This document shows, piece after piece, positions 935 through 62,799 of a stretch of DNA of 64,000 nucleotides (position 1 is the first letter of the stretch; the number at the start of each line of letters is the position of its first letter). The translations under genes and the position numbers were made by a program. The stretch is from an uncultured Alphaproteobacteria bacterium (GTDB lineage: Bacteria; Pseudomonadota; Alphaproteobacteria; HIMB59; GCA-002718135), in the NCBI GenBank assembly GCA_902560725.1, contig CACEMR010000002.1, positions 66,706-130,705 of the forward strand, in the 5' to 3' direction. Under the pieces are notes generated by a model. That model saw nothing but the letters and a program-made list of their open reading frames with translations, did not search any database and had not been told where the DNA came from.

Positions 935-945
935 TTTATAAATAA

Positions 946-3602: not shown

Positions 3603-3624
3603 ATAATCCCTAATATACTAAATA

Positions 3625-6513: not shown

Positions 6514-7394
6514 TTTTGTTTAATTATTATTGGTACTAATTGCACTATAATGACTCCAACAAATATTGCAAGACATCCAAGTATCTTTTGTGTGTCTAAA
6601 ACCTGATTCAATAATATCCATCCAGCAATGGCAGCAAAAACTGACTCCATTGATAAAATAATAGCAGCTGGCGCAGGATTGGCTTTATGCTGAGCAATAA
6701 TTTGCAGCGTATATCCAATTCCTGCTGAAAAGATTCCTGTATATAAAATTTCAAACCATTCGATTTGCATATTTGACAATTTTGGATCTTCCCAAGTAAA
6801 AGCTAATATCGTTGATAAAAGAAAAACTATAAAATATTGAATACTTCCAAAAAGGAACGGACTGTTCAATTCCTTTATAAAAATATCAATACAAATAATG
6901 TGTAATGCAAAAAATAAAGCTGCAATAAATAAAAGTGAATCTGATTGTTGAATTTCAATCGATTGATTAGATGATAATAAATAGGATCCGTATAAGCAAA
7001 GCAATATAGCAACCCAAATTATCCAGTGAACTTGTTTCTTAATTATAAACCTTGAAATAATTCCAACAAAAGGAACATAAAGTGTGCTCAAGAAAGCAGC
7101 ATTAGATATTAGTGATTTTTGTAAAGCATATTGTTGTAATCCCATACCACCAAATAGAAAAAACCCTGTAGCAATACATAAATAAATTTTTTTTCTATCG
7201 TTTAATATTTTAGAAACATTTCCCCTTTCTAAATAAAGCGCAAAGGGAATGACTGTAAGAAAAGCAAAAAAGAATCTTCCAAAGCTAAAGGTAAAAGGTC
7301 CAATAGCACCCATGCCTGTTGTTTGACTAACAAATGCTGTTCCCCAAATTAAGGATGCAATTAGCATGAGAATATTTGCTCTAGTATGGCTCAT
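6510..7394 (-). CDS. DMT-superfamily (EamA-like) membrane transporter
   Basis: 294-aa protein with about 10 TM segments and two EamA-type repeats. Its stop overlaps the kinase start by 4 nt. Confidence 0.75.
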   Translation of the reverse strand: MSHTRANILMLIASLIWGTAFVSQTTGMGAIGPFTFSFGRFFFAFLTVIPFALYLERGNVSKILNDRKKIYLCIATGFFLFGGMGLQQYALQKSLISNAAFLSTLYVPFVGIISRFIIKKQVHWIIWVAILLCLYGSYLLSSNQSIEIQQSDSLLFIAALFFALHIICIDIFIKELNSPFLFGSIQYFIVFLLSTILAFTWEDPKLSNMQIEWFEILYTGIFSAGIGYTLQIIAQHKANPAPAAIILSMESVFAAIAGWILLNQVLDTQKILGCLAIFVGVIIVQLVPIIIKQK

Positions 7395-7412
7395 TATGAA
7401 TAAGTAAATTTT

Positions 7413-9203: not shown

Positions 9204-9289
9204 TTTTATATCCTAACAATTTATTTGGATTTGATAAAGCTGTTCTTCATCAATCTTCAAATTTATAAATATTACTATATATTAGAATT

Positions 9290-10207
9290 ATGAAAATATT
9301 AGGATCAGAGATTACCCCATACTCAACCTATTTAAATAGACGCAAATTTATTAAAGGTACATTTGCAACCGCACTAGCAACGACTATCTCCTCAAATGTA
9401 TTTGCTAACCATCAGGCTAGTCCTGATATTTATAATAAATTTTTAGGAGAAAATGATACAATAAACTCCTATGAAGAAATAACGACCTATAATAATTTTT
9501 ATGAATTTGGGACTCATAAAAAACATCCATCTTTAAATTCTGGAAATTTTAATCCAAATCCATGGTCAATAAAGTTAGAGGGATTAATTAACAATCCTCA
9601 AACTATCGATCTAGAAAAATTATTATCTAAAGTTACTGTAGAGGATAGAGTTTATAGGCTTAGATGTGTGGAAGCATGGTCTATGGTTATTCCTTGGCAA
9701 GGTTTTCAATTATCTGAATTAATTAAAATTGCCGATCCTATAAGTTCAGCAAAGTACATCCAATTCGTTACAGTTTTAAGACCAGAAGAAATGCCTGGCC
9801 AACAAAAGAGAACAATTATTTGGCCTTACAGAGAAGGTTTAAGAATGGATGAAGCTATGAACTCCTTAACTATTCTTGCAACAGGATTATATGGACACAA
9901 AATGCCAAATCAAAATGGAGCACCTATCAGACTTGTTGTTCCTTGGAAATATGGTTTTAAATCAATTAAATCAATTGTAGCGATACGATTCTTAAATGAA
10001 CAACCAGAAACTTCTTGGGAAACTCTTGCTCCTTGGGAGTATGGTTTTTATGCAAATGTTAACCCAAGCGTTGATCATCCTCGTTGGAGTCAATCAACTG
10101 AAAGACGAATAGGTGAATTTAAAAGAAGAGAGACTCTTATGTTTAACGGCTATGAAGAAGAAGTTGCACATCTTTACAAAGATTTAGATATGACAAAATT
10201 TTACTAG
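9290..10207 (+). CDS. msrP: Protein-methionine-sulfoxide reductase catalytic subunit MsrP (YedY, molybdopterin enzyme)
   Basis: Twin-arginine signal NRRKFIKG. YNNFYEFG, RLRCVEAWSMVIPW and NGAPIRLVVPWKYGFKSIK are hallmark YedY segments. msrQ lies immediately downstream. Confidence 0.9.
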   Translation: MKILGSEITPYSTYLNRRKFIKGTFATALATTISSNVFANHQASPDIYNKFLGENDTINSYEEITTYNNFYEFGTHKKHPSLNSGNFNPNPWSIKLEGLINNPQTIDLEKLLSKVTVEDRVYRLRCVEAWSMVIPWQGFQLSELIKIADPISSAKYIQFVTVLRPEEMPGQQKRTIIWPYREGLRMDEAMNSLTILATGLYGHKMPNQNGAPIRLVVPWKYGFKSIKSIVAIRFLNEQPETSWETLAPWEYGFYANVNPSVDHPRWSQSTERRIGEFKRRETLMFNGYEEEVAHLYKDLDMTKFY

Positions 10208-16648: not shown

Positions 16649-17890
16649 GTGACCGAAAACCTAGAAATTAACAAAAGAGAGTACCCAAGTAAATTTGCAA
16701 AGACTGCCATAGTCATTTGTCTTGATGGCAGTCAAAAAGAGTATCTCGAAGAGGCATCAAAACTAAATCTTACACCTAATATTGATGCATTAATTTCTAA
16801 TGGAGAGAGTTTACTTGTTCATAGTGCTATACCAAGTTTTACAAATCCAAATAATATATCAATTGTAACAGGGCAACCTAGTTCTGTTCATGGAATATGT
16901 GGTAATTTCTTTTACACTCCTGAAACAGGGGAAGAAGTAATGATGAATGATCCAAAATATATGCGTGCACCAACAATATTTGAAAAATTTTATAATTCTG
17001 GATCAAAGATTGCTCTTGTTACGGCGAAAGATAAACTCAGAACTCTTTTGGGCAACGGTTTAGGATTTGATGATAATCGAGCAATATGTTTTTCAGCCGA
17101 AAAATCTGATCAGGCAACAAAAGAACATAATGGCATTGATAATGTTAATGACTGGTTAGGAATGCCCGTACCGGAAGTATACTCTCAGGGCCTTTCTGAA
17201 TTTGTTATGGCAGCTGGAGTGAAACTACTTGAGGAATTTAAACCAAATATAATGTACTTATCTACAACAGATTATATTCAACATAAGTATGCACCAGGAA
17301 ATGAAGTGGCTAATAAGTTTTATTCTATGTTTGATAAATATATCGGTCTTTTAAACAAGGGCGATGTATCAATAATTATTACAGCTGATCACGGTATGAA
17401 ACCAAAATCAAAAGATGATGGTTCACCTAATGCAATTTTTTTACAAGATTATCTTGATAAAAAATTTGAACCAAATGTAGCAAAAGTTATTTTACCAATA
17501 ACAGATCCTTACGTTGTTCATCACGGATCATTAGGTTCATTTGCAACAATTTATCTTGAAGATAAAACCAAAGTTAATGACGTTATAGAATCAATTAAAG
17601 AAATTAAAGATATAGAGGTAGTGTTAACCAAAGACGAAGGTTGCAATACATACAATCTACCACCTGATCGCATGGGCGATATAATATGTATGTCCTCAGA
17701 ATTTATGACCATTGGATCATCGGAAGATAAACATAATCTTTCTGGATTAAATGAACCTTTACGTTCTCATGGTGGTTTGCATGAGAGAGAAGTGCCTTTT
17801 ATATCAAATCTAAAAATACAAAATTACAATAATGAAAAACAGTTATATAATTATGATGCATTCTACTATGCAATTAATGGAGCCCTGTAA
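16649..17890 (+). CDS. phnA: Phosphonoacetate hydrolase (alkaline-phosphatase superfamily)
   Basis: [13 protein letters not shown]...[29 protein letters not shown] and ...ITADHGM match the PhnA family closely. GTG start. The TAATG stop/start overlap couples it to the downstream aldehyde dehydrogenase. Confidence 0.85.
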
Positions 17891-19329
17891 TGGAAAAGAA
17901 AATGATTAATGAAGCTATGCGAATTGCTGGCAAAAAAGTAACTTTTGAAAAAACAATTGATGTTGAGTATCCTTTTACAGGCGAAGTCATTGGTACGGTT
18001 CCTGCAGGAAATGCTGAACATGCAAGACAAGCTCTTGAAATAGCTGCAAACTATCAACCAAAGCTTACACGATACGAAAGACAAAAAATTCTTCAAACAG
18101 CTGCTGAGGTACTTGTAAAAAGAAAAGAAGAAATTTCTGATATCATTACTTTAGAGCTTGGGATTTCAAAACAAGACTCATTATATGAAGTAGGTAGAGC
18201 ATTTGATGTTTTTTCTTTAACCGCCCAACTTTGTATTCATGATGACGGAGAAATTTTTTCTTGTGATTTAACTCCTCATGGAAAAGCGAGAAAAATATTT
18301 ACAATAAGAGAACCATTAACAGCAATTTCTGCAATTACTCCTTTTAATCATCCTTTAAACATGGTGGCGCATAAAATTGCTCCTTCCATTGCAACGAATA
18401 ATTGTACTGTTTGTAAACAGACAGAATTAACTCCATTAACAGCAATGGTTCTTGCTGATGTTTTATATGAAGCTGGTTTACCTCCTGAAATGTTTTCTGT
18501 TGTTACAGGATGGCCACAAGATATTGGTTCAGAAATGATAAAGAATTCAAATATTGACCTTATTACTTTTACGGGAAGTGTCGGTGTTGGAAAACTAATT
18601 GCTGAACAAGCAGGATACAAAAGAACTGTTCTTGAACTTGGCGGAAATGACCCTCTAATTGTTTTAAATGATTTAGATTCAGATGATTTAAAGAAAGCTG
18701 TTGAATTAGCCGTAACTGGTGCAACAAAAAATTCAGGACAACGCTGTACTGCAGTTAAAAGAATACTTGTACAAGAAAAAATTGCTGATCAGTTTGTTGA
18801 AATGGCTTTGGAAAGAGCTAAAAAAATTAAATTTGGAGATCCGATGAGCATGGAAACTGATTTAGGTACCGTTGTTAATGCTCAAGCAGCTGAACTATTT
18901 GATAAAAGAGTTTCTATGGCAGAAGCAGATGGTGCGAAAATTTTATATCATCCTGGAAGAAAAGGTGCGTTATTGCCTCCAATAGTAATTGATAATGTTG
19001 ATCCTAAAAGTGAATTAGTATTGGAAGAGACTTTTGGGCCTGTCATTCCAATTATACGCGTTCCCAATGATGATGAATCTGTCATCAAGATCTCAAATTC
19101 AACTGCTTTTGGATTATCTTCAGGTGTGTGCACTAATAATTTTATGAGAGCAAAAAAATATATTCAAAACTTAAATGTTGGAACTGTCAATATTTGGGAA
19201 GTACCTGGTTACAGAATTGAAATGTCTCCTTTTGGGGGAATTAAAGACTCGGGACTGGGATACAAAGAGGGTGTTATTGAAGCGATGAAGAGTTTTACTA
19301 ATGTTAAAACCTTTTCTTTACCTTGGTAA
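17890..19329 (+). CDS. phnY: Aldehyde dehydrogenase, probable phosphonoacetaldehyde dehydrogenase (PhnY of the PhnW-PhnY-PhnA route; not the PhnY* dioxygenase)
   Basis: ALDH catalytic Glu (LELGGNDP) and Cys (GQRCTAVKR). Translationally coupled to phnA. The substrate assignment comes from context. Confidence 0.75.
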
Positions 19330-19473: not shown

Positions 19474-20727
19474 ATGAGAAAATTAATTACAGGATTAGCA
19501 GCCGTATTAGCGTTTGGTTTCTATGGTTCTGTTAATTCAGCGAAGTCTATTGAAATAGAAGTAGCTTATCCTTACTCAGGTTTATTTGATGTAACTTATC
19601 AAGCTATTATGCCAGAGTTTGAGAAAGCACATCCAGATATTCAAGTTAAATTTAGAGCAACTTATGAAAACTATGAAGATGCAACTGCTACAGTTTTAAG
19701 AGAAGCAACTTCTGGGAATCTACCAGATGTTACAATGCAAGGTCTTAACAGACAAGCTCCTCTAGTAGATAAAGGTATTGCAAAATCTTTAGAACCATTC
19801 ATTGCAAAAGAAGCTGATTTTGAAAAAGATGGTTATCATTCTGCAATGTTAAGTCTTTCAACATTTGGAGGAGAAGTTTATGGTTTACCATTCTCTGTAT
19901 CAACTCCTGTTGGATACTATAACATGGATTTATTAGCTGCAGCGGGTATAGACAGCATTCCAACTAACTGGGATGAAGTTATTGATGCTTGTGGAAAATT
20001 AGAAGCAGCTGGAAGTGGCACTTTATATTTTGGTTGGAATATTACAGGTAACTGGTTCCACCAAGCTTTAATGCACACACAAAATGTTAAAATTGTTGAA
20101 GATGGAAAAGTTAACTTAGGCGGAGACGCTGGTTTAAAAACTTTACAACAAATGCATGACATTATGAGTGGTTGTAATATGCCTAACTATTCAATTGCTG
20201 ATGGTCAAGCTGCATTTAATGCAGGTACTATTGGTATGATGTTCTGGTCAACTTCAAGCTTAGGTTCAGTAAATGCTGCAAAAGCAGATTTCGTACTTAA
20301 GACAGCTCCATTCCCTGGAATGGCAGGTGTAAATAATGGAACTCCAGCAAGATTACCAGCAGGTGGAAATGCAGCAATGTTAACTTCTACTTCTGATGAT
20401 CCAGCAAGAGTTGATGCGGCTTGGACATTCTTGAAGTTTATTACTTCTGGTATTGGCGCAGCATTAGTTGCGGAGACAACTGGTTATGTTCCACCAAACA
20501 AAGCAGCTAACGATTTATTAGGTGATTTCTATAGTGCAAATCCAAATAAACTTACTGCGGTTGAACAGCTTCCACTCTTAGCAGATTGGTTCGCATATCC
20601 TGGTGAAAACGGACTAGCAATCACTCAAGTAATTTATGATTACACTGAGGAAATTGCTACAGGTAGTGCTGATGATATGGGCGATCTTCAAGAAGAGATG
20701 ATGGAAGAAATAAACGATCTTCTGTAA
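19474..20727 (+). CDS. ABC transporter substrate-binding protein, family 1; probable 2-aminoethylphosphonate/phosphonate-binding protein by context
   Basis: Signal peptide MRKLITGLAAVLAFGFYGSVNSA. 417-aa family-1 SBP with a strong SD. Lies between phnY and the cognate CUT1 permease/ATPase genes, which are transcribed divergently. Confidence 0.75.
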   Translation: MRKLITGLAAVLAFGFYGSVNSAKSIEIEVAYPYSGLFDVTYQAIMPEFEKAHPDIQVKFRATYENYEDATATVLREATSGNLPDVTMQGLNRQAPLVDKGIAKSLEPFIAKEADFEKDGYHSAMLSLSTFGGEVYGLPFSVSTPVGYYNMDLLAAAGIDSIPTNWDEVIDACGKLEAAGSGTLYFGWNITGNWFHQALMHTQNVKIVEDGKVNLGGDAGLKTLQQMHDIMSGCNMPNYSIADGQAAFNAGTIGMMFWSTSSLGSVNAAKADFVLKTAPFPGMAGVNNGTPARLPAGGNAAMLTSTSDDPARVDAAWTFLKFITSGIGAALVAETTGYVPPNKAANDLLGDFYSANPNKLTAVEQLPLLADWFAYPGENGLAITQVIYDYTEEIATGSADDMGDLQEEMMEEINDLL

Positions 20728-20758
20728 ATTAAGATCATTTTATTATTAACTTTTCATG

Positions 20759-20790
20759 ACAGCGGCTTTATAAAAGCCGCTGTTTTTGTT
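20759..20790 (+). terminator. Rho-independent terminator after the SBP gene
   Basis: acagcggcttt-ata-aaagccgctgt forms an 11-bp GC-rich stem, followed by gtttttgtt. It sits 32 nt after the SBP stop and about 20 nt before the next gene's SD. Confidence 0.7.
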
Positions 20791-20812
20791 TAAAAATATT
20801 AACGGAGGAACA

Positions 20813-21892
20813 ATGCCACTTATAACAACCACAATAGGTGCTTATCCAAAACCTAAAAATACACCAATTAATGATTGGTTTTTAGGTACAAAATCAGAAG
20901 AAGAAAGAAAAGCATCTAAAGGACTATTAGCAAATTGGTCACCAGGTGCTTACGAAAAAGCATTAAAGGATGCTGGTGATAATGTAGAAAATTTATTTTT
21001 AGAAGCAATTAAAGAAGTTATACTTGATCAAGTAAGTGCTGGTATTGATGTTCCAACGGATGGTGAAGTAAGAAGAGAAAGTTATGTTTTCCACCAATGT
21101 CGTTTTTTAAATAATATAAGTTTTGAAGAAGTAACTCACAAATCAGTGAGACAAGGAGCTTTTGAAGCGAATGTTCCAACAATAATCGGTCCAGTATCAA
21201 GTAAAGAAATACGCATGCCATTTGATTGGAAAAGCGCTCAACAATTCACCAAAAATCCAGTTAAGATTACATTACCCGGTCCGATGACAATAACTGACTC
21301 TATTGCAAATAACTACTATGACGATCTTAAAAAACTTGGTTTTGATTTAGCGTTAGCTCTAAATAAAGAAATAAAAGCATTAGTTGATGCTGGATGTAAA
21401 TATATTCAAATTGATGAACCAGTTTTTGCAAGAAAACCAGAAGAAGCAAATATATACGGCATGGAAAACTTAGAAAGAATGATGCATGGAATTCCTAAAG
21501 ATGTCCAAAGGGAATGTCATATTTGTTGTGGTTATCCGAACTCTCTTGACTCAACAGGATATAAAAAAGCAGACTTAGACGCATACGATAGAATTGCTAC
21601 ATTAGTTGATGACTCTACTATTGACGCTGTATCTCTGGAAGATTCTCACAGACATAATGATTTAAATCTTTTAGAAAAATTTAAAAAAACAAAAGTTATT
21701 TTTGGATTTATTGATATTGCTAAAAGTAGAATGGAATCTGTAGAAGAAGTTAGAACTAGAATGAAAGATTCTTTAGAACATATTGATGAGCATCGTTTGA
21801 TTGCTGCTCCAGATTGTGGTTTAGGTTTTTTTACAAGAGAACAGGCAATTGAAAAAATGAAAATTTTATCAAAAGCAGCAAAATCAATTTAA
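20813..21892 (+). CDS. MetE C-terminal-domain-like (Meth_synt_2) Zn-dependent alkyl/methyltransferase, substrate unknown
   Basis: All four MetE-type Zn ligand positions are present: CHICCGYP (His/Cys), LEDSH (Glu), APDCGLGF (Cys). Only the catalytic barrel is present (about 360 aa). I prefer the ATG at 20813 (GGAGG 4 nt upstream) over the track's TTG at 20786. Confidence 0.75.
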   Translation: MPLITTTIGAYPKPKNTPINDWFLGTKSEEERKASKGLLANWSPGAYEKALKDAGDNVENLFLEAIKEVILDQVSAGIDVPTDGEVRRESYVFHQCRFLNNISFEEVTHKSVRQGAFEANVPTIIGPVSSKEIRMPFDWKSAQQFTKNPVKITLPGPMTITDSIANNYYDDLKKLGFDLALALNKEIKALVDAGCKYIQIDEPVFARKPEEANIYGMENLERMMHGIPKDVQRECHICCGYPNSLDSTGYKKADLDAYDRIATLVDDSTIDAVSLEDSHRHNDLNLLEKFKKTKVIFGFIDIAKSRMESVEEVRTRMKDSLEHIDEHRLIAAPDCGLGFFTREQAIEKMKILSKAAKSI

Positions 21893-21896
21893 AATA

Positions 21897-23009
21897 ATGT
21901 GGAATTACTATAATCCCGTAGAAATCATCTTTGGTAAAAATAGATTTCAGGAAGTACATAATGCACTTAAAGATAAAAGTTATATAATCATCACGCATCC
22001 AGAAGAAATTTTTAAAAAATATAGTGATGAATTAAGCTTATCTTCTCATCCACCTTTATCCATAATGACGGATGTTCAGCCTAATCCGGATTATAAAGAT
22101 ATATTAGAACTTCAAAAAAAATTTTCTTCTATTAAAAAAAATGTTGATTATATATTAGCAATTGGTGGAGGCTCTGTTACTGATACAGCAAAAGCTATTG
22201 CTGCATTTAAAGAAAATCAAGAATATCTAACAGATTTTGTAAGAAATAAAAAAAGTCCAAAGGTTGAAAATCCTATAAAAATTATTGCCATACCAACAAC
22301 TTCTGGAACATCAAGTGAGCTTACTTGTTGGGCTACAATTTGGGATAAAGAAAAAAATAATAAACTCTCTTTGGCTCATAAAACACTTTATGCAGAAAAA
22401 GCAATTATTGACCCATCAATTATGGTTGATAAACCGCTTGGTCTTACAATATCTACCGGTCTAGATGCATTATCTCATTCTATGGAGAGTATATGGAATA
22501 TTAATGCTAATCCAGTGTCAGCTTCTCATGCAATTCAAGCTTCAAAATTGGTTTTAGAGAATTTACCACTTTTATCAAAAGATCTTACTAATGTTGAATT
22601 ACGTTCGAACATTGCTCGCGCCTGTGTTCATGCAGGTCTGGCATTTTCAAACACGAAAACAGCTATTGCGCACAACCTATCTTATCCTATTACACTTAAT
22701 TACGGCATCCAACATGGTATTGCATGTTCTTTTACTCTTCCTATTGTTACAAGAAGCATGATTGGTATTAATCAAGTTGCTGAGGAAAGATTACAATTAA
22801 TTTTTAATGATAATTTAGAAAATGCATCAATAAAATTAAGCGAATTCATGCGTTCTCTAGAGGTTCCTTTAAACTTAAATGAAATAAAAGTTCCTGTTCA
22901 AGAATGGAATAATATAGTAGATGATGCTTTTTTAGGAGAGCGAGGTAAAAACTTTATTGGTAATAAAGAGTCTTTTACTAAATCAGCTCAACTTATGGGT
23001 TTATATTAA
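21897..23009 (+). CDS. Group III iron-containing alcohol dehydrogenase; candidate phosphonoacetaldehyde reductase / 2-hydroxyethylphosphonate dehydrogenase (PhpC/FomC-like) by context
   Basis: Fe-ADH motifs GGGSVTDTAKA, LDALSHSMES, AIAHNLSYP, GIQHGIAC. The N-terminus WNYYNPVEIIFG resembles phosphonate-pathway ADHs. Lies 4 nt after the MetE-like gene. Confidence 0.75.
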   Translation: MWNYYNPVEIIFGKNRFQEVHNALKDKSYIIITHPEEIFKKYSDELSLSSHPPLSIMTDVQPNPDYKDILELQKKFSSIKKNVDYILAIGGGSVTDTAKAIAAFKENQEYLTDFVRNKKSPKVENPIKIIAIPTTSGTSSELTCWATIWDKEKNNKLSLAHKTLYAEKAIIDPSIMVDKPLGLTISTGLDALSHSMESIWNINANPVSASHAIQASKLVLENLPLLSKDLTNVELRSNIARACVHAGLAFSNTKTAIAHNLSYPITLNYGIQHGIACSFTLPIVTRSMIGINQVAEERLQLIFNDNLENASIKLSEFMRSLEVPLNLNEIKVPVQEWNNIVDDAFLGERGKNFIGNKESFTKSAQLMGLY

Positions 23010-23011
23010 AT

Positions 23012-24118
23012 ATGAAAAAAAATTTTAGATTTTACGATAATAGACAAAAATATTTATTATTTGTAACGACAACAAATGAAAAAAATCAAATTGCTGATGC
23101 TATTCGTCCTCATATTAATAAAATTAAACCTCAAAAACCTGGAATAAAAATATTTGATGCTGGTATGGGTGATGGATCATTATTGATGAATGTCATGCGC
23201 CAATGTCATTCTAAAAATCCTACTATTCCTTTGTTAGTTGCAACAAAAGAGATTAGTATTGAAGATGTAAGATTAGGTTTAGAAAAACTACCTGATAGAT
23301 TTGTGGAACATAAAAATACCGTTTTTGTAATTTCAAATTTACATTATGCGGAAGCTGCTAATTTAAAATCAAAAAATGAAAAGAAACAAAAAAAAATTAA
23401 TTGGAATGTTATAAAACTAAAAGGGAATACTTCGATTGAATTTGCCCAACAATTAAGAAAACAAAATGAATTTTTAGAAAAAAAATGGAACATAGAAATT
23501 AATAAAAAATCAGGTAATCATACTTATAAAGAACCATCGGTAATTGTGATTTATCGAGAGGATCAAGAGTTTAATGTAAACGAGCTAATTCCAACAAAAA
23601 ATAATTCTGCAAACAGATTTGATCTTATAATTGCATCGCAACCGTACAGATCAAGAATTTCAGCTGAAAAAAAAGCAAAATATGTAATTGAGCCCATGAT
23701 TAAAGCTCTGAAGTCAAAAGGAAAATTACTAACAATTCATGCATCAGGAAAAGATCCAGCAAATGAAATTATTCGAAAAATTTGGCCAAAAGAAAACCCT
23801 TTTCCTTCACTCGGCAATAGTATCATTTCATATCTAAAGAAAAACTTAGATAAAGAATTGTTAGATAATTTATCTTTTGGAGAAAAAAGAAATATTAAAT
23901 GTAAACTTCGTGCACTTCCAACAGAAATAAGTGGTGGGATAGCTACTTCTTTAATATTTTCTGCTTGGAATGCATCTATATATGTAAATCAAATGGATGA
24001 TGATAAAGTAATGAAAGTCGAAAAAACAAAAAATTATGAAAAGACTGTTCAAAAAGTAGTTGCAAAAAACAAAGGTCTTTATTTTAATAATGAAATTTTT
24101 GTTATAGAAAAGAAATAA
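23012..24118 (+). CDS. Uncharacterised 368-aa protein with class-I SAM-methyltransferase-like Rossmann motifs
   Basis: Motif I IFDAGMGDGSLL, an acidic beta-2 end (LVATKE), an FDLIIASQPY segment resembling the (D/N/S)PP(Y/F) amino-methyltransferase motif, and a large K/N-rich insertion. I do not recognise the family. Confidence 0.45.
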   Translation: MKKNFRFYDNRQKYLLFVTTTNEKNQIADAIRPHINKIKPQKPGIKIFDAGMGDGSLLMNVMRQCHSKNPTIPLLVATKEISIEDVRLGLEKLPDRFVEHKNTVFVISNLHYAEAANLKSKNEKKQKKINWNVIKLKGNTSIEFAQQLRKQNEFLEKKWNIEINKKSGNHTYKEPSVIVIYREDQEFNVNELIPTKNNSANRFDLIIASQPYRSRISAEKKAKYVIEPMIKALKSKGKLLTIHASGKDPANEIIRKIWPKENPFPSLGNSIISYLKKNLDKELLDNLSFGEKRNIKCKLRALPTEISGGIATSLIFSAWNASIYVNQMDDDKVMKVEKTKNYEKTVQKVVAKNKGLYFNNEIFVIEKK

Positions 24119-24127
24119 TTTTATTTT

Positions 24128-24922
24128 TTATTCAATCCAATTTACTTCAGTTTTTAAAAAATCTTCAGTATGAATAATTGTTGTATCTGATCGGATAATT
24201 GCAACATTATAATTTGTATCTGTATTTGCTGTTCCCAGTCTGTATTGATTTGAAAAATTTGATATCAATGGAAACCACGTACTTCTTGGAGATGAAAAAG
24301 TTATATTACAATACGAACCGGAGCTTGTTATATGCTGATGTCCAAAAAAAATATGTTTAATATTTTTTTTACTACTTAATAAAATTTTTTTAAATTCTTC
24401 TTTTTGTTGAAGACCAATCTCATCAGTTTCTTCTTTCACCAAAGCTAGAGGATTGTGATGCATAAAAATATAAATATCCTTATCATAAGATGTTTGATTT
24501 AAAGTTTTGTTGAGCCAAGCCTGTCTATCCTCACAATAATAACCTTTATCTTCATCATCTAAATTTGTATCTATAAAAATAAAACGTTTATTTTCTAAAT
24601 CTTTAAAATATTGAACAAAACCATTTTCATCTTCTTGTATTGAAGGAAAGTTTTTTTTAAATTCTTCACGGTTATCATGATTTCCAATTATAAGTTTTGG
24701 ATCTAATTGTTCAGGTAAATTTGCGTCTTGAATTATTTTTATAAATAATTGATATGACTCTTTATCTCCTAGATCTGTGATATCACCTGTTATGACAAAT
24801 AGATCAGCATCACTATGATTTTTTAAAATGTGATCTAATGCTTTTTTAAACCTACTTACTGGATCAATACCATGAATTTTATCTGTATAAATATGTGGAT
24901 CAGATAAATGAATAATTTTCAT
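24128..24922 (-). CDS. Calcineurin-like metallophosphoesterase (CpdA/GpdQ-type phosphodiesterase)
   Basis: All five motifs are present: LSDPH, GDITDLG, GNHDN, FMHHNP, GHQH. Last gene of the phnW operon. Confidence 0.8.
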   Translation of the reverse strand: MKIIHLSDPHIYTDKIHGIDPVSRFKKALDHILKNHSDADLFVITGDITDLGDKESYQLFIKIIQDANLPEQLDPKLIIGNHDNREEFKKNFPSIQEDENGFVQYFKDLENKRFIFIDTNLDDEDKGYYCEDRQAWLNKTLNQTSYDKDIYIFMHHNPLALVKEETDEIGLQQKEEFKKILLSSKKNIKHIFFGHQHITSSGSYCNITFSSPRSTWFPLISNFSNQYRLGTANTDTNYNVAIIRSDTTIIHTEDFLKTEVNWIE

Positions 24923-24945: not shown

Positions 24946-25578
24946 TTAAATTTCTGTTTTAAAATAAATATATTTATTAAACTCTTCTTTTAAATCAATA
25001 CTAACTCGGGCATGAACTTTTCCCTGTTTTCCTTGAAAAGATTGCTTTTCAGATACAGGGAAGACGCCCTCATGCCATATATTGGGATGAATATAGAGAC
25101 CTTTAGAGCCATCACAATAAAACGCTTTAAAGTGTTCTGGTTCTATATCATCTGTTGGTAATGCTAACGGACAAATGAAAGGTTTTTTTTCTTCAGGATA
25201 AAAAAGCTGTCCACCATCTGGGTGATAATTAGCATGCCATAAATAAATTTTATCTGGAGTTTGATAATTTTCTTTTTGTAAATCATTATCAGGATTAGTT
25301 GAATATCCAAGAATATATTTTCCATCAACTTCGTAATCACTCTTATGTTGAACAGCATTATTTTGTCCATAAAGAGTATCACCTTGCCACCAAGTATCAA
25401 AGGAGCCTTCTGTTGTTCCTCCTTCATTTCCTGTTCCTTCTTCTATATCTCTCCAACCTTGTTTTGGCCAAGTAACAATTTCAATTTCACTTTTTTCATA
25501 CGTATCAATTAAGTAACCGTATCCCTTAAGATTTTCATCAGTAGCTTGAATTAGTGGAATTTCAATTTCTTGTGTCAT
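24946..25578 (-). CDS. Ureidoglycolate-lyase (AllA) family cupin-like protein with ~50-aa insertion, function unknown
   Basis: YHPDGGQLFYP matches RHPLGTQAFIP, and GLYIHPNIWHEGVF matches GVNYHRNVWHHPLF of E. coli AllA as I recall it. The N-terminal ...LKGYGYLI is also AllA-like. Lies 6 nt downstream of phnW. Confidence 0.6.
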   Translation of the reverse strand: MTQEIEIPLIQATDENLKGYGYLIDTYEKSEIEIVTWPKQGWRDIEEGTGNEGGTTEGSFDTWWQGDTLYGQNNAVQHKSDYEVDGKYILGYSTNPDNDLQKENYQTPDKIYLWHANYHPDGGQLFYPEEKKPFICPLALPTDDIEPEHFKAFYCDGSKGLYIHPNIWHEGVFPVSEKQSFQGKQGKVHARVSIDLKEEFNKYIYFKTEI

Positions 25579-25584
25579 TTACAA

Positions 25585-26682
25585 TTAATTAATTTTTAAA
25601 CCTAGTTCTTGAATTACTTCTTGAACAGCTTTTATTGTATCGTGCATATCATTTTCATTTAAATTACCAATACAACCTATACGAAATGTTTCAGCAACAG
25701 TTAGTTTGCCAGGATAAATTAAGAAATCTTTTTCACTAAGTGCATTATAGAATTTTTCAAAATTAAAACTTGAATCACCCGGTTGCTTAAAAGTTATAAT
25801 AATTGGTGCTTGTAAATTATCAGGAAGTAATTGTTCAAAACCTAATTCTTTCATACCGGTACATATTATTTCACAATTACTTTTATATCTTTGATGTCTT
25901 CCCTGAACCCCGCCTTCATTTTCATGTTCTTTAATAGCTTGATTGAAAGCTGCTAATACATGCGTTGGAGGTGTAAAGCGCCATTGTTTATTTTTTTCCA
26001 TTGCTTGCCATTGATCATACAAATCCAAACTGAGTGAATGACTATTTCCTTTTGCATTTTGAATAACATTATTTTTTACTAAAATAAAACCAACACCTGG
26101 AACACCTTCTAAGCATTTATTAGATGACGCAGCTACCGCATCAAAACTAATTTTTTTTGCACTAAGAGGTAGCGCCCCAAAGGCACTCATAGCATCGATA
26201 AATAAAGATAGTTTTTTTGATTCAACTAATTTTGCAATTTCTTCAATAGGATTTAAAATACCAGATGTTGTTTCACAATAGACAGTGAAAACATGTGTTA
26301 ATTCATTATTATCAATTAGCTCTTCAATTTTAGTTAAATCATGTACTTCATGTTCTGCAACTTCATACTCTATAAAATCTCTATTTAAGTACGTGCACAT
26401 TTTTTTCATACGTTGTCCGTATGCACCATTTATTAAAATCAGTATCTTTGAGTCTTTTGATGTAAGTGAACTAACCATAGATTCAACAGCAAAAGTTCCA
26501 CTTCCTTGCATTGGAACACATTGATAATTATCTTCACCCTCAATTAATTTAACTAGTGACTCTCTTATAGATGAATTGAGATCAATAAATTTCTTATCTC
26601 TTGATCCCCAATCATGTAACATAGCTTCTTTTGTGGACATTGAGGTCGTAAGAGGACCTGGAGTTAATAATTTTTTATCCAT
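25585..26682 (-). CDS. phnW: 2-aminoethylphosphonate:pyruvate aminotransferase
   Basis: MDKKLLTPGPLTTS..., SSNKCLEGVPG (PLP lysine), SLSLDLYDQW, WRFTPPTH and FRIGCIGN track PhnW end to end. I prefer the ATG at 26682 (AGAGGA upstream) over the track start at 26724. Confidence 0.9.
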   Translation of the reverse strand: MDKKLLTPGPLTTSMSTKEAMLHDWGSRDKKFIDLNSSIRESLVKLIEGEDNYQCVPMQGSGTFAVESMVSSLTSKDSKILILINGAYGQRMKKMCTYLNRDFIEYEVAEHEVHDLTKIEELIDNNELTHVFTVYCETTSGILNPIEEIAKLVESKKLSLFIDAMSAFGALPLSAKKISFDAVAASSNKCLEGVPGVGFILVKNNVIQNAKGNSHSLSLDLYDQWQAMEKNKQWRFTPPTHVLAAFNQAIKEHENEGGVQGRHQRYKSNCEIICTGMKELGFEQLLPDNLQAPIIITFKQPGDSSFNFEKFYNALSEKDFLIYPGKLTVAETFRIGCIGNLNENDMHDTIKAVQEVIQELGLKIN

Positions 26683-26779
26683 TAAACTTATTATCCTCTT
26701 AAATATTATTATAAAATTGATCAATCGTATAAAACTTAGAATTGAAATTATTTTCTAATAAGTTAATTATTATCTAAGA

Positions 26780-27349
26780 ATGGAAGAAAATATTGTAGAT
26801 TATTTGCTGGATCTTTTGAAGACTAAAGGAGCGGATATTCAATATGGCAATGAAGATGTCACTCAATTAGAACACGCTCTTCAATGTGCTGAATTAGCTG
26901 AACAACATAAATTGCCTGGTCCAACAATTGCAGCGGCCTTACTTCACGATGTGGGACATCTTGTATATGAAGACGGCGATCCTATTCATGAAGGGAAGGA
27001 TGGTCATCATGAAAACTTAGGTGCTGATTTTTTAAAAAAATATTTTGGAGAAGAAGTTATCTTACCTATCAGAGCGCACGTTGCTTCAAAAAGATACCTA
27101 TCCAGTGTTGAAGATGGGTATTATAACAGTTTATCAGAGGCATCTAAAATATCACTCAAAGTTCAAGGCGGACCATTTACCAAAGAAGAAGCAGAAGAAT
27201 TTATAAACAAACCATTTATGGATGAAGCCGTGGAACTGAGAAGATTTGATGATATGGCTAAAATTCTTGATAAAAAAACACCAGATGTTGAACATTTTCG
27301 ACCTTATTTAGAAGATGCAAGAAAATCCTTTCTCGCTAACAAGTCCTAA
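26780..27349 (+). CDS. phnZ: HD-domain protein of the phosphonate-degradation type (PhnZ/TmpB-like mixed-valent diiron oxygenase)
   Basis: 189 aa with an extended ligand pattern: H32 (QLEHALQCA), H56-D57 (LLHDVGH), H76/H77 (DGHHE), H100 (IRAHVASKRYL), D157/D158 (RRFDD). The Y22-x2-E25 lid matches PhnZ spacing as I recall it. Confidence 0.7.
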   Translation: MEENIVDYLLDLLKTKGADIQYGNEDVTQLEHALQCAELAEQHKLPGPTIAAALLHDVGHLVYEDGDPIHEGKDGHHENLGADFLKKYFGEEVILPIRAHVASKRYLSSVEDGYYNSLSEASKISLKVQGGPFTKEEAEEFINKPFMDEAVELRRFDDMAKILDKKTPDVEHFRPYLEDARKSFLANKS

Positions 27350-27874
27350 ATGCAATTTAGTGAATACGATTTCATAGACTCGAAATCTTTTGCTGGAAAA
27401 ATAATCTTAACTTCATTTCCAGGATTAAATGAAAATGGAATATTTGATGTAAGTCATTTTAATAATGAACTTAATCTTTTTAAAAATAATAACTGCAGCT
27501 CCATCACATCGTTTGTTGAAGATAATGAATTTGAAAAATTATGTGATAAAACTTTATTTGTAAAAAATATTTATGACCACAAGTTGCATTGGTATCATCT
27601 ACCAATTTACGACATGGGAGCACCTGATAAAGATTTTAAATACAAATGGGAAACAACAAAGGTACTCCTTAAAAATGAATTAATAGATGGAAAAAATATT
27701 GTTTTACATTGTCGTGGTGGTAAAGGACGAGCAGGAACAATAGCTGCAATTTTACTTCTAGAATTTAATTATCCTAAACAAGAAGCAATTGATTTAGTTC
27801 GATCAAGGCGAAAAGGAGCTATTGAATCAAAGATACAAGAAGACTTTATTTTTGCTTACCGGGCAGTAAATTAA
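27350..27874 (+). CDS. Cysteine-based (CX5R) dual-specificity/KAP-like phosphatase
   Basis: Active-site loop VLHCRGGKGRAGT (HCX5R). The general-acid candidate is PIYDMGAPD. Its ATG directly abuts the TAA of the PhnZ-like gene. Confidence 0.7.
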   Translation: MQFSEYDFIDSKSFAGKIILTSFPGLNENGIFDVSHFNNELNLFKNNNCSSITSFVEDNEFEKLCDKTLFVKNIYDHKLHWYHLPIYDMGAPDKDFKYKWETTKVLLKNELIDGKNIVLHCRGGKGRAGTIAAILLLEFNYPKQEAIDLVRSRRKGAIESKIQEDFIFAYRAVN

Positions 27875-28923
27875 AACGAAACAGTTAAATTAAAAATATT
27901 TTCTAAAACAAATAAAATAATCAATGATATTAGAGCTGCAATTATAGGCAGCGTAACCCATCCCATTGATATTCTTCCCGCAATAGACCATTGCACTTCT
28001 TTTCCTCCTTTTAGGAGCCCAATTCCAATAACACCTCCAACAACAGCTTGCGAACTGGAAACAGGAACAAGAGGAATAGAGGGAAGATTAATAGATTGAA
28101 GAAAAGCACTAATACCCTGAGAGGCAAATAAAAATAAAACGATCGAATGAGAAATAACAACAATAAAAGCTGCTACAGGAGACATCTTTAATAAATCATT
28201 TCCAACAGTATACATGACTCTCTTAGAGTAAGTGAATACACCTACTGCTATGGCTAAACCTCCAAGTAAAAACAATTGTTCTTTCGAGGAAAAAATAAAT
28301 ACGTTGGATATATTAATATCAGTAAATGGGGAAATAGGAACAAAGACACCCATAACATTGGCAATGTTATTTGCACCCAAACTATATGCTCCAAATGCAC
28401 CAGCAAGTAGCAAGGCTGTTCTTGTATATGCATCAAGTCGTAAAATATGTAATTTTCTATTTAGAATAACTCTTTTTGTAAAAGTAAATAAACCCATTGC
28501 GATTATACCTGCAATGATTGGGCAAATTATCCATGTTGCTAAAATTGTCATTAGAACCTGGATGTTTGTTGACGATCCTGTATATAAATTCCAACCAACT
28601 ATAGCTCCAACAATAGCTTGCGTTGTAGAAACTGGCAGTCCAACTTTGGTCATTAAGTAAACAGAAACCCCTGCTGCAACGCAGGCAGCAAAAGCACCAG
28701 GTAATGCATTTATTGCTCCAAGCTTCCCAAGTGTTTCTGTTGTTCCAGCACCACTTATGATTGCTCCAAGTATTACAAATATACTACACACTATGGCAGC
28801 ACTTGTGAAACTTACCATTCGTGTTCCAACCGCAGTACCAAACACATTAGCAGCATCATTTGCTCCAAGAGACCAGCCTAAAAATAAACCACCAAATAAA
28901 AAAATTAATATTGTAATTTCCAT
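27871..28923 (-). CDS. pit: Inorganic phosphate transporter, PiT family
   Basis: Duplicated PHO4 signatures GANDAANVFGTAVG / GLPVSTTQAIVGAIVG and GANNIANVMG / PVSSSQAVVGGVIG. Preceded by its DUF47 partner. Confidence 0.9.
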   Translation of the reverse strand: MEITILIFLFGGLFLGWSLGANDAANVFGTAVGTRMVSFTSAAIVCSIFVILGAIISGAGTTETLGKLGAINALPGAFAACVAAGVSVYLMTKVGLPVSTTQAIVGAIVGWNLYTGSSTNIQVLMTILATWIICPIIAGIIAMGLFTFTKRVILNRKLHILRLDAYTRTALLLAGAFGAYSLGANNIANVMGVFVPISPFTDINISNVFIFSSKEQLFLLGGLAIAVGVFTYSKRVMYTVGNDLLKMSPVAAFIVVISHSIVLFLFASQGISAFLQSINLPSIPLVPVSSSQAVVGGVIGIGLLKGGKEVQWSIAGRISMGWVTLPIIAALISLIILFVLENIFNLTVSF

Positions 28924-28930
28924 TTAAAAA

Positions 28931-29593
28931 TTAAACTGAACGTTTAATAGCGTAGATTTGTACCTCATCAGCAATATCTTCTGCTTGATCACAAATACGA
29001 TCAATTTTTTCAACAAAATATCGAAGATGCATTTTTTGATCTAAATTTAGCTCTGAGTCAAATATTTTTCTAGCAAGAGAGCTAAATTTAATATCTGATT
29101 CTTTTTCATAAAAAGTAACTTTGTGTGCATTATCTCTTACTGATTTAATATCACGAAAAAATGAACGAACAGTTAAACATAATGACTCAACACAATTCAC
29201 AACAGTTTCAGTTAAATCAACCAAGTCCTCGTGAAACTCTTTTGGAAAATTAGGTTTTTGAATAGAGAAGTGATAACAATTACCCTGATACATTCCAATT
29301 AATTCATCCAGATGTTCTAAAACGCGCAATACATCACTTCTAGCATCAGGAATTAATGTTTCCTCATATAATGTGTGCTCAACATCTTTGGTAATTTTAT
29401 CTGCCTTACTTTCCATTTCTTTTACTTTCTCAACCATCTCTTCAAATTTTCCATTTGCCGAATGATTAAGATAAGTGGGAACGATAGACTTAAATACCAA
29501 ACCAACTTCAGAGACAATATCAACAAATTCGTCTATTTCTCTCTCTAGTTTTTTGGTTTCTCCAAACAATGATGTGCTCTTTAATCCAAACAT
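28931..29593 (-). CDS. DUF47/TIGR00153 PhoU-like Pit accessory protein
   Basis: 220-aa helical protein (ESKADKITKDVEHTLYEETLIPDARSDVLRVLEHLDELI), 7 nt upstream of pit. This is the usual DUF47-PiT pairing. Confidence 0.8.
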   Translation of the reverse strand: MFGLKSTSLFGETKKLEREIDEFVDIVSEVGLVFKSIVPTYLNHSANGKFEEMVEKVKEMESKADKITKDVEHTLYEETLIPDARSDVLRVLEHLDELIGMYQGNCYHFSIQKPNFPKEFHEDLVDLTETVVNCVESLCLTVRSFFRDIKSVRDNAHKVTFYEKESDIKFSSLARKIFDSELNLDQKMHLRYFVEKIDRICDQAEDIADEVQIYAIKRSV

Positions 29594-29958: not shown

Positions 29959-30981
29959 TCAAGTAATTAAGCTTCCACTATGCGCATCGATTTGTGATTC
30001 TAGAAATTCAGAAGCACAATCTTCCCATGTTAACTTTAAGGCAAAATTCCGACAATCTTCTCTTCTAACTTTTAACGCTTTTTCAACTGACTTATTTAAA
30101 TTTTCGTCAAGAGTATTTAATTTTGGATCTATCAAAATATCTTTTGGGCCAGTAACTGGAAATGCTGCAATTGGCGTACCACATGCCAGAGATTCAAGTA
30201 TAACATTTCCTAAGGTGTCGGTTTTAGAAGGAAATACAAATACATCTGCATCTGCATAGTATTGAGCTAGTTCTTCTCCTTTTTTTAATCCAACAAAATT
30301 TACTCGAGGATATTTGTTACTATATTTTTCTAGCTCAGGACCGTCACCGACAACAGTTTTTTTAAAGCTTCCCTCAAGTTTTAAAAAAGCTTCAATATTT
30401 TTTTCAATTGCGACTCTACCAATATATGTAAGCTGTATTTCTTTATTTGATCTATTTCTTTTATTTGAATTAAATAATTTTGTATCAACACCCCTCTTCC
30501 ACACTTTTAAATTTTTAAAATTATATTTCTCCAATTCTTTAATCATAGAATTTGATGGAACTAGTACATTGACAGACTTATCATGTAATCTTCTTAATAA
30601 TGAGTACGTGAAGGTTTTTGGGATATAGGCTCTTTGTTTAACATAATCAGGAAAACGAGTGTGAAAGGAAGAAGTGTATTTTAAGTTATTTTTAATACAA
30701 TATTTCCTTCCAGCAAAACCAACAGGACCTTCGGTAATTATATGAACAATATCAGGTTTATAATCTTTAAAAAACTTATCAGTAATTTTTTTAGTGTTAT
30801 AGGATATTTTGATTTCTTTATACCAAGGATAACTAAAGTTACTGAACATTTCTGGATGAAGGATTTTTATTTGAAATCCTTTTTTTTCTAAAATAGGTAT
30901 AATGCTTTGGAATGTGGTAACAACACCATTAACTTGTGGAACCCAGGCATCACTTATTAAAGCGATTTTTTTACGCTGCAT
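29959..30981 (-). CDS. agt: GT4-family glycosyltransferase, probable diacylglycerol glycosyl/glucuronosyltransferase (Agt-like) of the P-stress lipid-remodelling pair
   Basis: N-terminus KIALISDAWVPQVNGVV and the C-terminal ADVFVFPSKTDTLGNVILESLACGTP (GT4 E-x7-E region). Overlaps the plcP stop by 11 nt. Confidence 0.75.
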   Translation of the reverse strand: MQRKKIALISDAWVPQVNGVVTTFQSIIPILEKKGFQIKILHPEMFSNFSYPWYKEIKISYNTKKITDKFFKDYKPDIVHIITEGPVGFAGRKYCIKNNLKYTSSFHTRFPDYVKQRAYIPKTFTYSLLRRLHDKSVNVLVPSNSMIKELEKYNFKNLKVWKRGVDTKLFNSNKRNRSNKEIQLTYIGRVAIEKNIEAFLKLEGSFKKTVVGDGPELEKYSNKYPRVNFVGLKKGEELAQYYADADVFVFPSKTDTLGNVILESLACGTPIAAFPVTGPKDILIDPKLNTLDENLNKSVEKALKVRREDCRNFALKLTWEDCASEFLESQIDAHSGSLIT

Positions 30982-31783
30982 CCTCTTTTAATTTTTTCTT
31001 CTCTTCAAAAGAAATTAATTTTAATTTTTCTCTTTCTTCAGGCCAATTTAAAATTGATAGATTCCCAACATCATCTTCAACTAATGCTGTACAACTTTCA
31101 ATCCAATCACCATCATTACAATATAGAACACCATTTAACTCTTTTATTTCTGGTCGGTGAATGTGACCACAAATAACAACATCAGCATTTTCTCTTCTTG
31201 CCCGGTCAGATACAGCAAATTCAAAGTTACTAATAAAATTAGTTGCATGTTTGGTTTTCTTTTTCAAATATTGAGAGAGAGACCAGTAAGACAAACCCAT
31301 CTTTCTTCGAACAAAATTAAATACATTATTTAATTTTAATAAATATTCATAAAGGGCCGACCCAACTTTAGCTAACCATCTCGCATTTATAATCACAGCA
31401 TCAAACTCATCTCCGTGCGTAATAAGAACTTTTCTTCCATCAGCTAATTGATGCCTATCTTCATTTTTTATTGAAATTTCTCCAAAAGAAAAATTTGTAA
31501 AATCTTTTAATACTTCATCATGATTTCCTGGGATAAGCACTACCTTAGTTCCATTTTTAGCTTTCTTTAAAACTTTTTGAACCACGTCATTATGTTCTTG
31601 AGGCCAATACATTTTCTTACGCATGCGCCATCCATCAACAATGTCGCCAACTAAGAATAAATATTCTGAATCTGTTTCTTCTAAGAATTCTAAAAGCATG
31701 GAGCTTTTACATCCACTTGTCCCAAGATGTGTGTCTGATATCCAGATTGTACGATAATATTTTTTGTTAGTTACAAACTTCAT
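30971..31783 (-). CDS. plcP: LpxH-like metallophosphoesterase, probable phospholipase C PlcP (phospholipid to diacylglycerol under P limitation)
   Basis: Motifs WISDTHLG, VGDIVDGW, PGNHDE, THGDEFD, GHIHRP. Pairing with a downstream GT4 gene is the arrangement described for plcP-agt in marine alphaproteobacteria. Confidence 0.75.
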   Translation of the reverse strand: MKFVTNKKYYRTIWISDTHLGTSGCKSSMLLEFLEETDSEYLFLVGDIVDGWRMRKKMYWPQEHNDVVQKVLKKAKNGTKVVLIPGNHDEVLKDFTNFSFGEISIKNEDRHQLADGRKVLITHGDEFDAVIINARWLAKVGSALYEYLLKLNNVFNFVRRKMGLSYWSLSQYLKKKTKHATNFISNFEFAVSDRARRENADVVICGHIHRPEIKELNGVLYCNDGDWIESCTALVEDDVGNLSILNWPEEREKLKLISFEEKKKLKEDAA

Positions 31784-61651: not shown

Positions 61652-61676
61652 TTTAAATTATTTTATATCTAAACTT

Positions 61677-62792: not shown

Positions 62793-62799
62793 TAAAAGT

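Follow-up and report, generated by a model that had tools for sequence, protein, structure and literature searches.

PhnZ and TmpB, the characterised HD-domain diiron oxygenases of phosphonate catabolism, are paired with iron/2-oxoglutarate (Fe/2OG) hydroxylases, PhnY* and TmpA. A PhnZ homologue without PhnY* has also been recorded in 24 of 75 phnWAY clusters and in 15 of 1,186 phnWX clusters, never together with pbfA; its proposed role in such clusters is the handling of (R)-1-hydroxy-2-aminoethylphosphonate, which PhnW–PhnX cannot process properly (Zangelmi et al. 2021, PMC8154272). Of the marine phnZ sequences, 45% come from Pelagibacterales, and in 30–50% of cases phnZ is found together with phnA or phnX (Lockwood et al., PMC9381506). 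Here we analyse a 64-kb stretch of DNA (the window; contig CACEMR010000002.1, positions 66,706–130,705) in which a PhnZ/TmpB-like gene (the HD gene) is directly followed by the gene of a cysteine (Cys) phosphatase. The window has a guanine–cytosine (GC) content of 29%, is 96% coding and has single-cell genomes of Pelagibacterales as its closest relatives; it comes from a SAR11 (Pelagibacterales) genome and forms part of that genome's phosphorus-acquisition island. The two open reading frames (ORFs) at issue are:

26780–27349 (+), 189 aa: PhnZ/TmpB-family HD-domain mixed-valent diiron oxygenase, predicted to cleave the carbon–phosphorus (C–P) bond of a 1-hydroxy-phosphonate oxidatively (TIGR03276, 6NPA, 4MLM, metal ligands)
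27350–27874 (+), 174 aa: predicted KAP/PRL/SsoPTP-like Cys phosphatase (Pfam PTP-SAK, structural model, catalytic residues)

The TAA stop codon of the first directly precedes the ATG of the second, and the coordinates and abutment are as given in a first-pass annotation of this DNA. Hundreds of homologues for each protein indicate that both genes are real, and both evolve under purifying selection: against six other SAR11 genomes, the ratio of non-synonymous to synonymous substitution rates (dN/dS) is 0.03–0.04 for the HD gene and 0.04–0.15 for the phosphatase gene. An exact sequence look-up returned the HD protein only on a 1.7-kb TARA contig, and no match for the window phosphatase. We read the locus as a PhnZ-type oxygenase that would act on an imported 1-hydroxyphosphonate, beside a phosphatase that would have been left behind by importer loss and would work independently of it, and we put the probability of this reading as a whole at roughly 0.5.

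The HD protein and the missing hydroxylase

The best NCBIfam match of the HD protein is TIGR03276, 'phosphonate degradation HD-domain oxygenase' (1.8e-59; 200.2 bits, just missing the cut-off of 214.6), and its scores against the equivalog models NF049941 for TmpB (162 bits) and NF052439 for PhnZ1 (156.6 bits) fall well short of the cut-off of 300 that applies to each. By these scores, the protein is a family member that is not assignable to any characterised specificity. Residues 4–179 align with the structures of TmpB (6NPA, 1.5e-35) and PhnZ (4MLM, 1.4e-29) at 41% and 39% identity, respectively, and TmpB and PhnZ share 36% with each other. With lid, ligands and residue roles defined as in a published review (PMC8177086), the diiron ligands H32, H56, D57, H77, H100 and D157, the YxxE lid Y22-G-N-E25, and the further conserved pocket residues H60, K104, R105, S119, S122, Q129 and R154 do not vary among 55 distinct SAR11 orthologues, and PhnZ and TmpB have the same residues at all of these positions. 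The lid has been described for PhnZ (Y24/E27) and TmpB (Y30/E33) but not for MIOX, and E27 of PhnZ contacts the substrate amino group (PMC8177086); this amine-binding Glu is retained as E25 in the HD protein. Its earlier placement in the PhnZ/TmpB class holds by every sequence criterion, with neither the lid nor any of the six ligands lost in the alignment. By its sequence, the HD protein belongs to the PhnZ class of oxygenases, where it represents a separate subfamily, and it probably acts on an amino-bearing 1-hydroxyphosphonate.

A Pfam scan of the 64 window ORFs of at least 110 aa detected no TauD, PhyH or other 2OG-oxygenase domain, and tblastn with TauD-type, PhyH-type and further 2OG/Fe(II)-oxygenase queries gave no match in the window, bearing out the earlier remark that it holds no TauD/PhyH-like ORF. 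Relatives gave no PhnY*/TmpA homologue either: within ~10 kb of the gene pair in ~80 related SAR11 loci, the search for an Fe/2OG hydroxylase returned only chance-level tblastn matches (E >1). The TauD-type query came from Labrenzia and the other two from a Rhodococcus plasmid; the Labrenzia TauD-type and Rhodococcus PhyH-type genes lie directly upstream of an HD gene in their own organisms and serve as positive controls.

The pathway context of the HD gene had been overlooked in the first-pass annotation. PhnW, PhnY and PhnA are encoded in the same island, each above its curated cut-off, which makes this a phnWAY cluster, and Pfam scans of the window ORFs gave no match to the class-III aminotransferase (PbfA-type) or HAD (PhnX-type) families. 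A PhnZ-like gene without PhnY* in a phnWAY cluster is a real but already known arrangement, and on the HD side it is the subfamily member that is new, in a cluster type that had been described before. The oxygenase would convert an imported, already 1-hydroxylated aminophosphonate and O2 into phosphate and glycine, with (R)-1-hydroxy-2-aminoethylphosphonate as the best candidate; if the substrate is already 1-hydroxylated in seawater, no PhnY*-type hydroxylase would be needed. This reaction would be a side branch to the PhnW–PhnY–PhnA route for 2-aminoethylphosphonate (2-AEP), in which 2-AEP would yield acetate and inorganic phosphate (Pi), and an Fe-alcohol dehydrogenase (TIGR03405-like) may feed in 2-hydroxyethylphosphonate. 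Direct use of environmental 1-hydroxy-phosphonates was one of three options raised earlier for this gene; it is the best supported of them, and as a proposal it is already published rather than new (PMC8154272).

Other arrangements of HD oxygenase genes were seen on two plasmids. On Variovorax plasmid NZ_LR594669 (L088, 5291–8537), a TIGR03276-type HD oxygenase gene stands last after phnCDE and C–P lyase genes, without a hydroxylase partner. On Labrenzia plasmid NZ_CP045345 (L089, 6823–9406), a TauD (TmpA-like) gene, a TmpB-like HD gene and a gene of the alkaline-phosphatase superfamily (PF01663) follow one another with 4-bp overlaps each, a second and unrelated case of a phosphatase-like gene behind an HD oxygenase.

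The Cys phosphatase and its importer-linked relatives

The phosphatase contains the P-loop VLHCRGGKGRAGT (HCRGGKGRAGT; H120, C121, R127), an HCX5R motif; across 12 divergent relatives, its H, C, G, G, G and R do not change. C121, R127, Q163 and the general-acid D88 (in LPIxD) are invariant across the subfamily, and a Gln-Glu near the C-terminus is conserved. The protein matches Pfam PTP-SAK (47.2 bits, cut-off 27; 3e-12) and no curated NCBIfam model (best 18 bits). Its structural model (predicted local distance difference test, pLDDT, 90.8) is closest in Foldseek to KAP/CDKN3 (1FPZ; E 5.6e-10, template-modelling (TM) score 0.74–0.79), then to PRL-1, SsoPTP and Tk-PTP, in line with its earlier description as KAP/dual-specificity-like. 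Database matches fall into 7 clusters (50% identity) at E <1e-30 and 696 at E <1e-10; these comparisons make the phosphatase a subfamily in its own right within a broad bacterial family. Since no N-terminal hydrophobic stretch was found in it, it is probably cytoplasmic. Full-text searches, which were limited in reach, found no literature linking a Cys phosphatase to these loci.

Two functional hints were considered and set aside. SAR11 phosphatases have Lys at Cys+4 (HCxGGKGR), which in a PTEN-like HCxxGKGR loop could point to polyanionic substrates; importer-linked relatives have Leu there, so this was rejected as a family trait. An arsenate-reductase role is unlikely in view of the conserved general-acid Asp and Gln and the lack of arsenic genes. 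As a separate observation, phosphatase relatives in higher-GC bacteria are adjacent or fused to ADP-ribosylglycohydrolase (L096 6072–7582; L097; L149, L153, L157, L159 and L168; plasmid matches H37, H42 and H43), which explains why some SAR11 homologues carry the stray annotation 'ADP-ribosyl-[dinitrogen reductase] hydrolase'.

Adjacency of the two genes was surveyed in 85 SAR11 loci, comprising 80 species-level genomes plus metagenome contigs, all of them related and strongly syntenic. The HD and phosphatase genes are neighbours in 83 of the 85, with a gap of 0 bp in 67 and of at most 11 bp in 82. The left flank of the HD gene is PhnW–cupin in most SAR11 loci and EamA plus an AEP-type importer in three (L075, L078 and L084); the Pit/PhoU_div genes to the right of the pair are missing in six loci that keep HD–phosphatase, so an anchoring of the phosphatase to the Pit/PhoU_div pair was rejected. 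Same-strand gaps in the window have a median of 2.5 bp and measure at most 5 bp at 24 of 44 junctions; together with the 96% coding density, this makes the 0-bp HD/phosphatase junction the norm and not a special signal. The 0-bp junction behind the earlier statement that the genes are 'translationally coupled' stands; coupling itself may follow from it, but such gaps are ordinary here.

Beyond this arrangement, the phosphatase turns up in importer operons. In the SAR11 loci L005 and L006, the order is EamA(−), HD(+), PhnS2(−), PhnT2(+), PhnU2(+), phosphatase(+), Pit(−), with the phosphatase, 59% identical to that of the window, 4 kb from the HD gene; PhnS2, PhnT2 and PhnU2 all score above the curated cut-offs for a 'putative 2-AEP ABC transporter' (ABC, ATP-binding cassette). 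In non-SAR11 marine bacteria of 37–48% GC, the order is EamA, PhnS2(−), PhnT2, PhnU2, phosphatase (L092, L093–95 and L098), the phosphatase is 32–43% identical to that of the window, and no HD gene or recognisable C–P enzyme was found within ~7 kb. Where measured, the phosphatase start overlaps the stop of the PhnU2 permease gene by 4–16 bp. A metagenome scan seeded with the distant phosphatases gave 36 informative mid-GC marine contigs, i.e., with enough upstream DNA, and PhnU2 directly precedes the phosphatase in 35 of them; none of the 80 loci returned by the scan has an HD homologue. The HD–phosphatase adjacency is thus conserved within SAR11 but not in the non-SAR11 contigs. A neighbor-joining distance tree without support values groups importer-linked and SAR11 phosphatases in a single clade, where the L005 type branches at the base of SAR11. 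In the window, the phosphatase gene follows the HD gene and not a PhnU2 gene, and the only PhnS2/PhnU2-like genes, in an ABC system at the window edge (107–3602) that also has a convergent ATPase gene, are distant relatives (38–65 bits to the AEP-importer models).

Against TIGR03261, the binding protein of the phosphatase-linked importers reaches 402–414 bits and the second copy in L005 reaches 507 bits. Both binding proteins have phosphate-ester binders as their nearest solved relatives, namely AfuA (hexose and heptose phosphates) and P5PA (pyridoxal 5′-phosphate), so the ligands of this clade are not phosphonates alone. L005 itself has two paralogous PhnS2–T2–U2 importers side by side (557–4376 and 6001–9982; binding proteins 507 and 402 bits to TIGR03261), and the phosphatase gene stands behind the divergent copy only. 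A hexose-phosphate specificity of the phosphatase-linked binding protein was rejected, with Gly and Arg aligned to the sugar-binding residues H205 and D206 of AfuA. In L093-type loci, a HAD gene that converges on the phosphatase gene proved to be SerB and not a phosphonatase.

Since the importer-linked phosphatases occur without HD, and given the gene order of L005/L006, the HD–phosphatase abutment looks like the result of importer loss. We infer that the ancestral position of the phosphatase gene was fourth and last in a PhnS2–T2–U2 importer operon and that a SAR11 ancestor carried the HD gene just upstream of the importer; loss of the importer, fitting genome streamlining, would have left HD and phosphatase abutting, with the phosphatase gene then transcribed from the HD promoter and co-transcribed with the HD gene. 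The importer–phosphatase operon is often found by itself, and cleavage of a C–P bond would not be expected of a Cys phosphatase, so the importer paralogue plausibly carries a phosphate ester. Independently of the oxygenase, the phosphatase would most plausibly release Pi from a small phosphomonoester that such importers bring in, e.g., an aminoalkyl phosphate; a candidate would be phosphoethanolamine, which is the ester analogue of 2-AEP. In any case, the phosphatase is a real, conserved and undescribed accessory of AEP/phosphonate-type uptake and catabolism loci. More tentatively, and with the odds against it, the phosphatase and the divergent PhnS2–T2–U2 paralogue may form an unrecognised uptake–hydrolysis system for phosphate esters (e.g., aminoalkyl phosphates), widespread in marine Alphaproteobacteria, of which the phosphatase alone would survive in most SAR11, on the promoter of the PhnZ-like gene. 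In a bolder version, the phosphatase may be a PRL-like, phosphate-sensing brake on such importers.

Alternative readings of the gene pair

On the oxygenase side, the HD protein could be an ordinary phosphohydrolase, given that most HD-domain proteins are hydrolases (PMC8177086) and that its score lies slightly under the TIGR03276 cut-off. The full H...HD...H...H...D set, the YxxE lid and ~40% full-length identity to both crystal structures leave this barely credible. A complete oxidative AEP pathway, with the 1-hydroxyl installed by a non-canonical hydroxylase nearby, is highly improbable as well. The two candidates are the AllA-like cupin, which the first-pass annotation had singled out and which is conserved in the island, and a 368-aa ORF at 23012–24118 that has no family assignment. 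However, the cupin matches only the ureidoglycolate lyase family, in which we know of no oxygenases, and it is tied to PhnW: it lies directly downstream of PhnW in essentially every SAR11 locus, the two are called as one 581-aa product in L002 (7595–9340), and the HD gene is present without the cupin in L005, L006, L075 and L084. The 368-aa ORF is likewise missing from several HD loci. The position of the AllA-like cupin next to PhnW suggests instead an undescribed accessory step of AEP transamination.

The other three readings concern the phosphatase. An obligate two-step P-release module, in which a phosphorylated hydroxyphosphonate is dephosphorylated and then cleaved or the reverse, had also been proposed earlier; it would suit the adjacency in 83 of 85 loci with its frequent 0-bp gap (67 loci), the purifying selection on both genes and the persistence of the pair when the left flank switches between PhnW–cupin and EamA–importer or when Pit/PhoU_div is gone. 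We nevertheless consider it quite unlikely: the phosphatase subfamily stands behind PhnU2 without an HD gene in 35 of the 36 informative non-SAR11 contigs, an importer separates the two genes by 4 kb in L005/L006, 0-bp junctions are the norm in this genome and the SAR11 loci are related and strongly syntenic, and the PhnZ reaction yields Pi and glycine, with nothing left to dephosphorylate (PMC8177086). A regulatory role, in which a protein phosphatase or PRL-like pseudo-phosphatase tunes the ABC importer or phosphate signalling, is unlikely to a lesser degree. The closest folds (KAP, PRL-1/2/3, SsoPTP and Tk-PTP) are without exception those of enzymes that bind proteins or act on them, PRLs have been solved in complex with the Bateman domains of CNNM magnesium transporters, and the phosphatase gene invariably closes an operon for transport or P scavenging; against this, most SAR11 retain the phosphatase after loss of the adjacent importer, no kinase or signalling gene was recognised beside it in the loci examined, and the catalytic Cys, Arg, Asp and Gln are all kept, which speaks against a pure pseudo-enzyme. 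Action on nucleotide-derived phosphates (e.g., ADP-ribose phosphates), with an incidental place in the phosphonate island, could be argued from the fusion or adjacency of the wider PTP-SAK family to ADP-ribosylglycohydrolase in several lineages. It appears very unlikely, as the SAR11 and importer-linked phosphatases form a separate clade, no ADP-ribosylglycohydrolase gene lies near them, and linkage to PhnS2–T2–U2 or HD recurs across lineages of 30–48% GC.

Several points weigh against an oxygenase for imported 1-hydroxyphosphonates with a phosphatase left behind by importer loss. The sub-cut-off scores mean that the HD substrate could differ, being hydroxymethylphosphonate or another 1-hydroxyphosphonate, and a hydroxylase gene may sit elsewhere in the genome, the search having covered the window and ~10 kb around the pair in relatives. 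Within SAR11, the HD–phosphatase junction is the most stable of the island and survives loss of PhnW–cupin or of Pit/PhoU_div, which would also fit a functional pair; the relatedness and strong synteny of these loci and the ordinary nature of 0-bp gaps make this adjacency evidence weigh less. The phosphatase clade comes from a simple distance tree of the kind noted above, the importer-linked loci could rely on C–P enzymes encoded elsewhere, and the best folds of the modelled phosphatase are those of protein phosphatases (KAP, PRL), not metabolic ones.

The island and comparison with described systems

The other features of the island that bear on the gene pair are:

16649–17890 (+): PhnA, phosphonoacetate hydrolase (TIGR02335, 467.1 bits; cut-off 407.6)
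17890–19329 (+): PhnY, phosphonoacetaldehyde dehydrogenase, not the PhnY* hydroxylase (TIGR03250, 791.8 bits; cut-off 635.7)
21897–23009 (+): phosphonate-associated Fe-alcohol dehydrogenase, PsrA/PhpC-like (TIGR03405, 364.7 bits; cut-off of 423.7 not reached)
24128–24922 (−): metallophosphoesterase, SpdA/CpdA-like phosphodiesterase (NF050112, 182 bits, below cut-off; PF00149)
24946–25578 (−): AllA (ureidoglycolate lyase)-like cupin (PF04115, 2.4e-10; 1XSR, 6e-06)
25585–26724 (−): PhnW, 2-aminoethylphosphonate–pyruvate transaminase (TIGR02326, 468.8 bits, cut-off 400.8; NF010006, 514 bits)
26725–26779 (no strand): divergent intergenic region of 55 bp between phnW (−) and the HD gene (+), the sole non-coding DNA upstream of the HD–phosphatase pair
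27871–28923 (−): PiT-family phosphate transporter, convergent with the phosphatase gene and overlapping it by 4 bp (PF01384, 3e-63)
28931–29593 (−): PhoU_div/DUF47 partner of the PiT transporter (PF01865, 2.8e-23)

The 55-bp region presumably holds divergent or shared promoters. A scan of 26500–28100, which says little in DNA of 29% GC, gave 10 promoter-like sites, a number not above that expected from shuffles (8.2), with one match at 26742–26770; it gave no terminator-like site, including between the HD and phosphatase genes.

Between PhnY and the metallophosphoesterase, the stretch 19474–24118 (+) is a variable cassette with a UgpB-like binding protein, a MetE-like (Meth_synt_2) protein, the Fe-alcohol dehydrogenase and the 368-aa ORF, which has no Pfam or NCBIfam match. 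A MetE-like gene is also found near a PhyH–HD pair on Rhodococcus plasmid NZ_CP034154 (L090). To the right of the PiT genes, 29959–31783 (−) encodes a GT4 glycosyltransferase and a metallophosphoesterase, a pair that is inverted in many related loci and that presumably resembles the PlcP/glycosyltransferase lipid-remodelling pair used by SAR11 under phosphate stress. The window also holds dnaA, dnaN and recF (60257–63885, +), so that only ~30 kb separate the phosphorus island and the presumed replication origin.

Among marine heterotrophs, SAR11 is the most abundant. For phnZ, published estimates run from <1% to ~20% of cells, in part because subfamily specificities are not known (PMC10574752), and marine phosphonate turnover could be modelled more sharply with a substrate assigned to the SAR11 HD subfamily. 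Separate from this, and modest, is the finding on the phosphatase: AEP-type importer operons have a conserved fourth gene, which no paper reached by the full-text searches mentions and which could mean that phosphate esters, too, reach the cell through these importers or their paralogues. If the ester-uptake reading is true, part of the 2-AEP/phosphonate transport counted in ocean surveys would be ester scavenging; should the phosphatase be no more than a passenger, nothing sets the locus apart from others of a known cluster type.

Set against the described systems, the HD protein is of the same length class as PhnZ and TmpB, is 39–41% identical to them from end to end, and has their six iron ligands, their YxxE lid and further residues of the pocket; it differs in missing the equivalog cut-offs and in a gene without an adjacent Fe/2OG hydroxylase (PhnY*/TmpA). 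The locus is like the phnWAY and phnWX clusters with phnZ (PMC8154272; TIGR03276) in having a PhnZ-like gene beside PhnW, PhnY and PhnA without PhnY* or PbfA, whereas the survey of those clusters mentions no Cys phosphatase, and in the window the HD gene is divergent from phnW and is then followed by the phosphatase gene. Compared with the AepXVW/PhnS2–T2–U2 2-AEP transporters (Murphy et al. 2021, PMC8316502), the importers that precede the phosphatase in relatives pass the PhnS2, PhnT2 and PhnU2 cut-offs; by contrast, the phosphatase-linked binding protein is a divergent paralogue, usually with no C–P enzyme nearby, the described system has no fourth phosphatase gene, and the window is without this importer. 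Finally, the phosphatase resembles KAP/CDKN3, PRL and the archaeal SsoPTP and Tk-PTP in fold (TM-score 0.69–0.79), HCX5R P-loop, general-acid Asp and a size of ~170 aa, and it is set apart from them by an identity of only 20–30%, by its bacterial origin and by its operon linkage to a nutrient importer or a C–P oxygenase.

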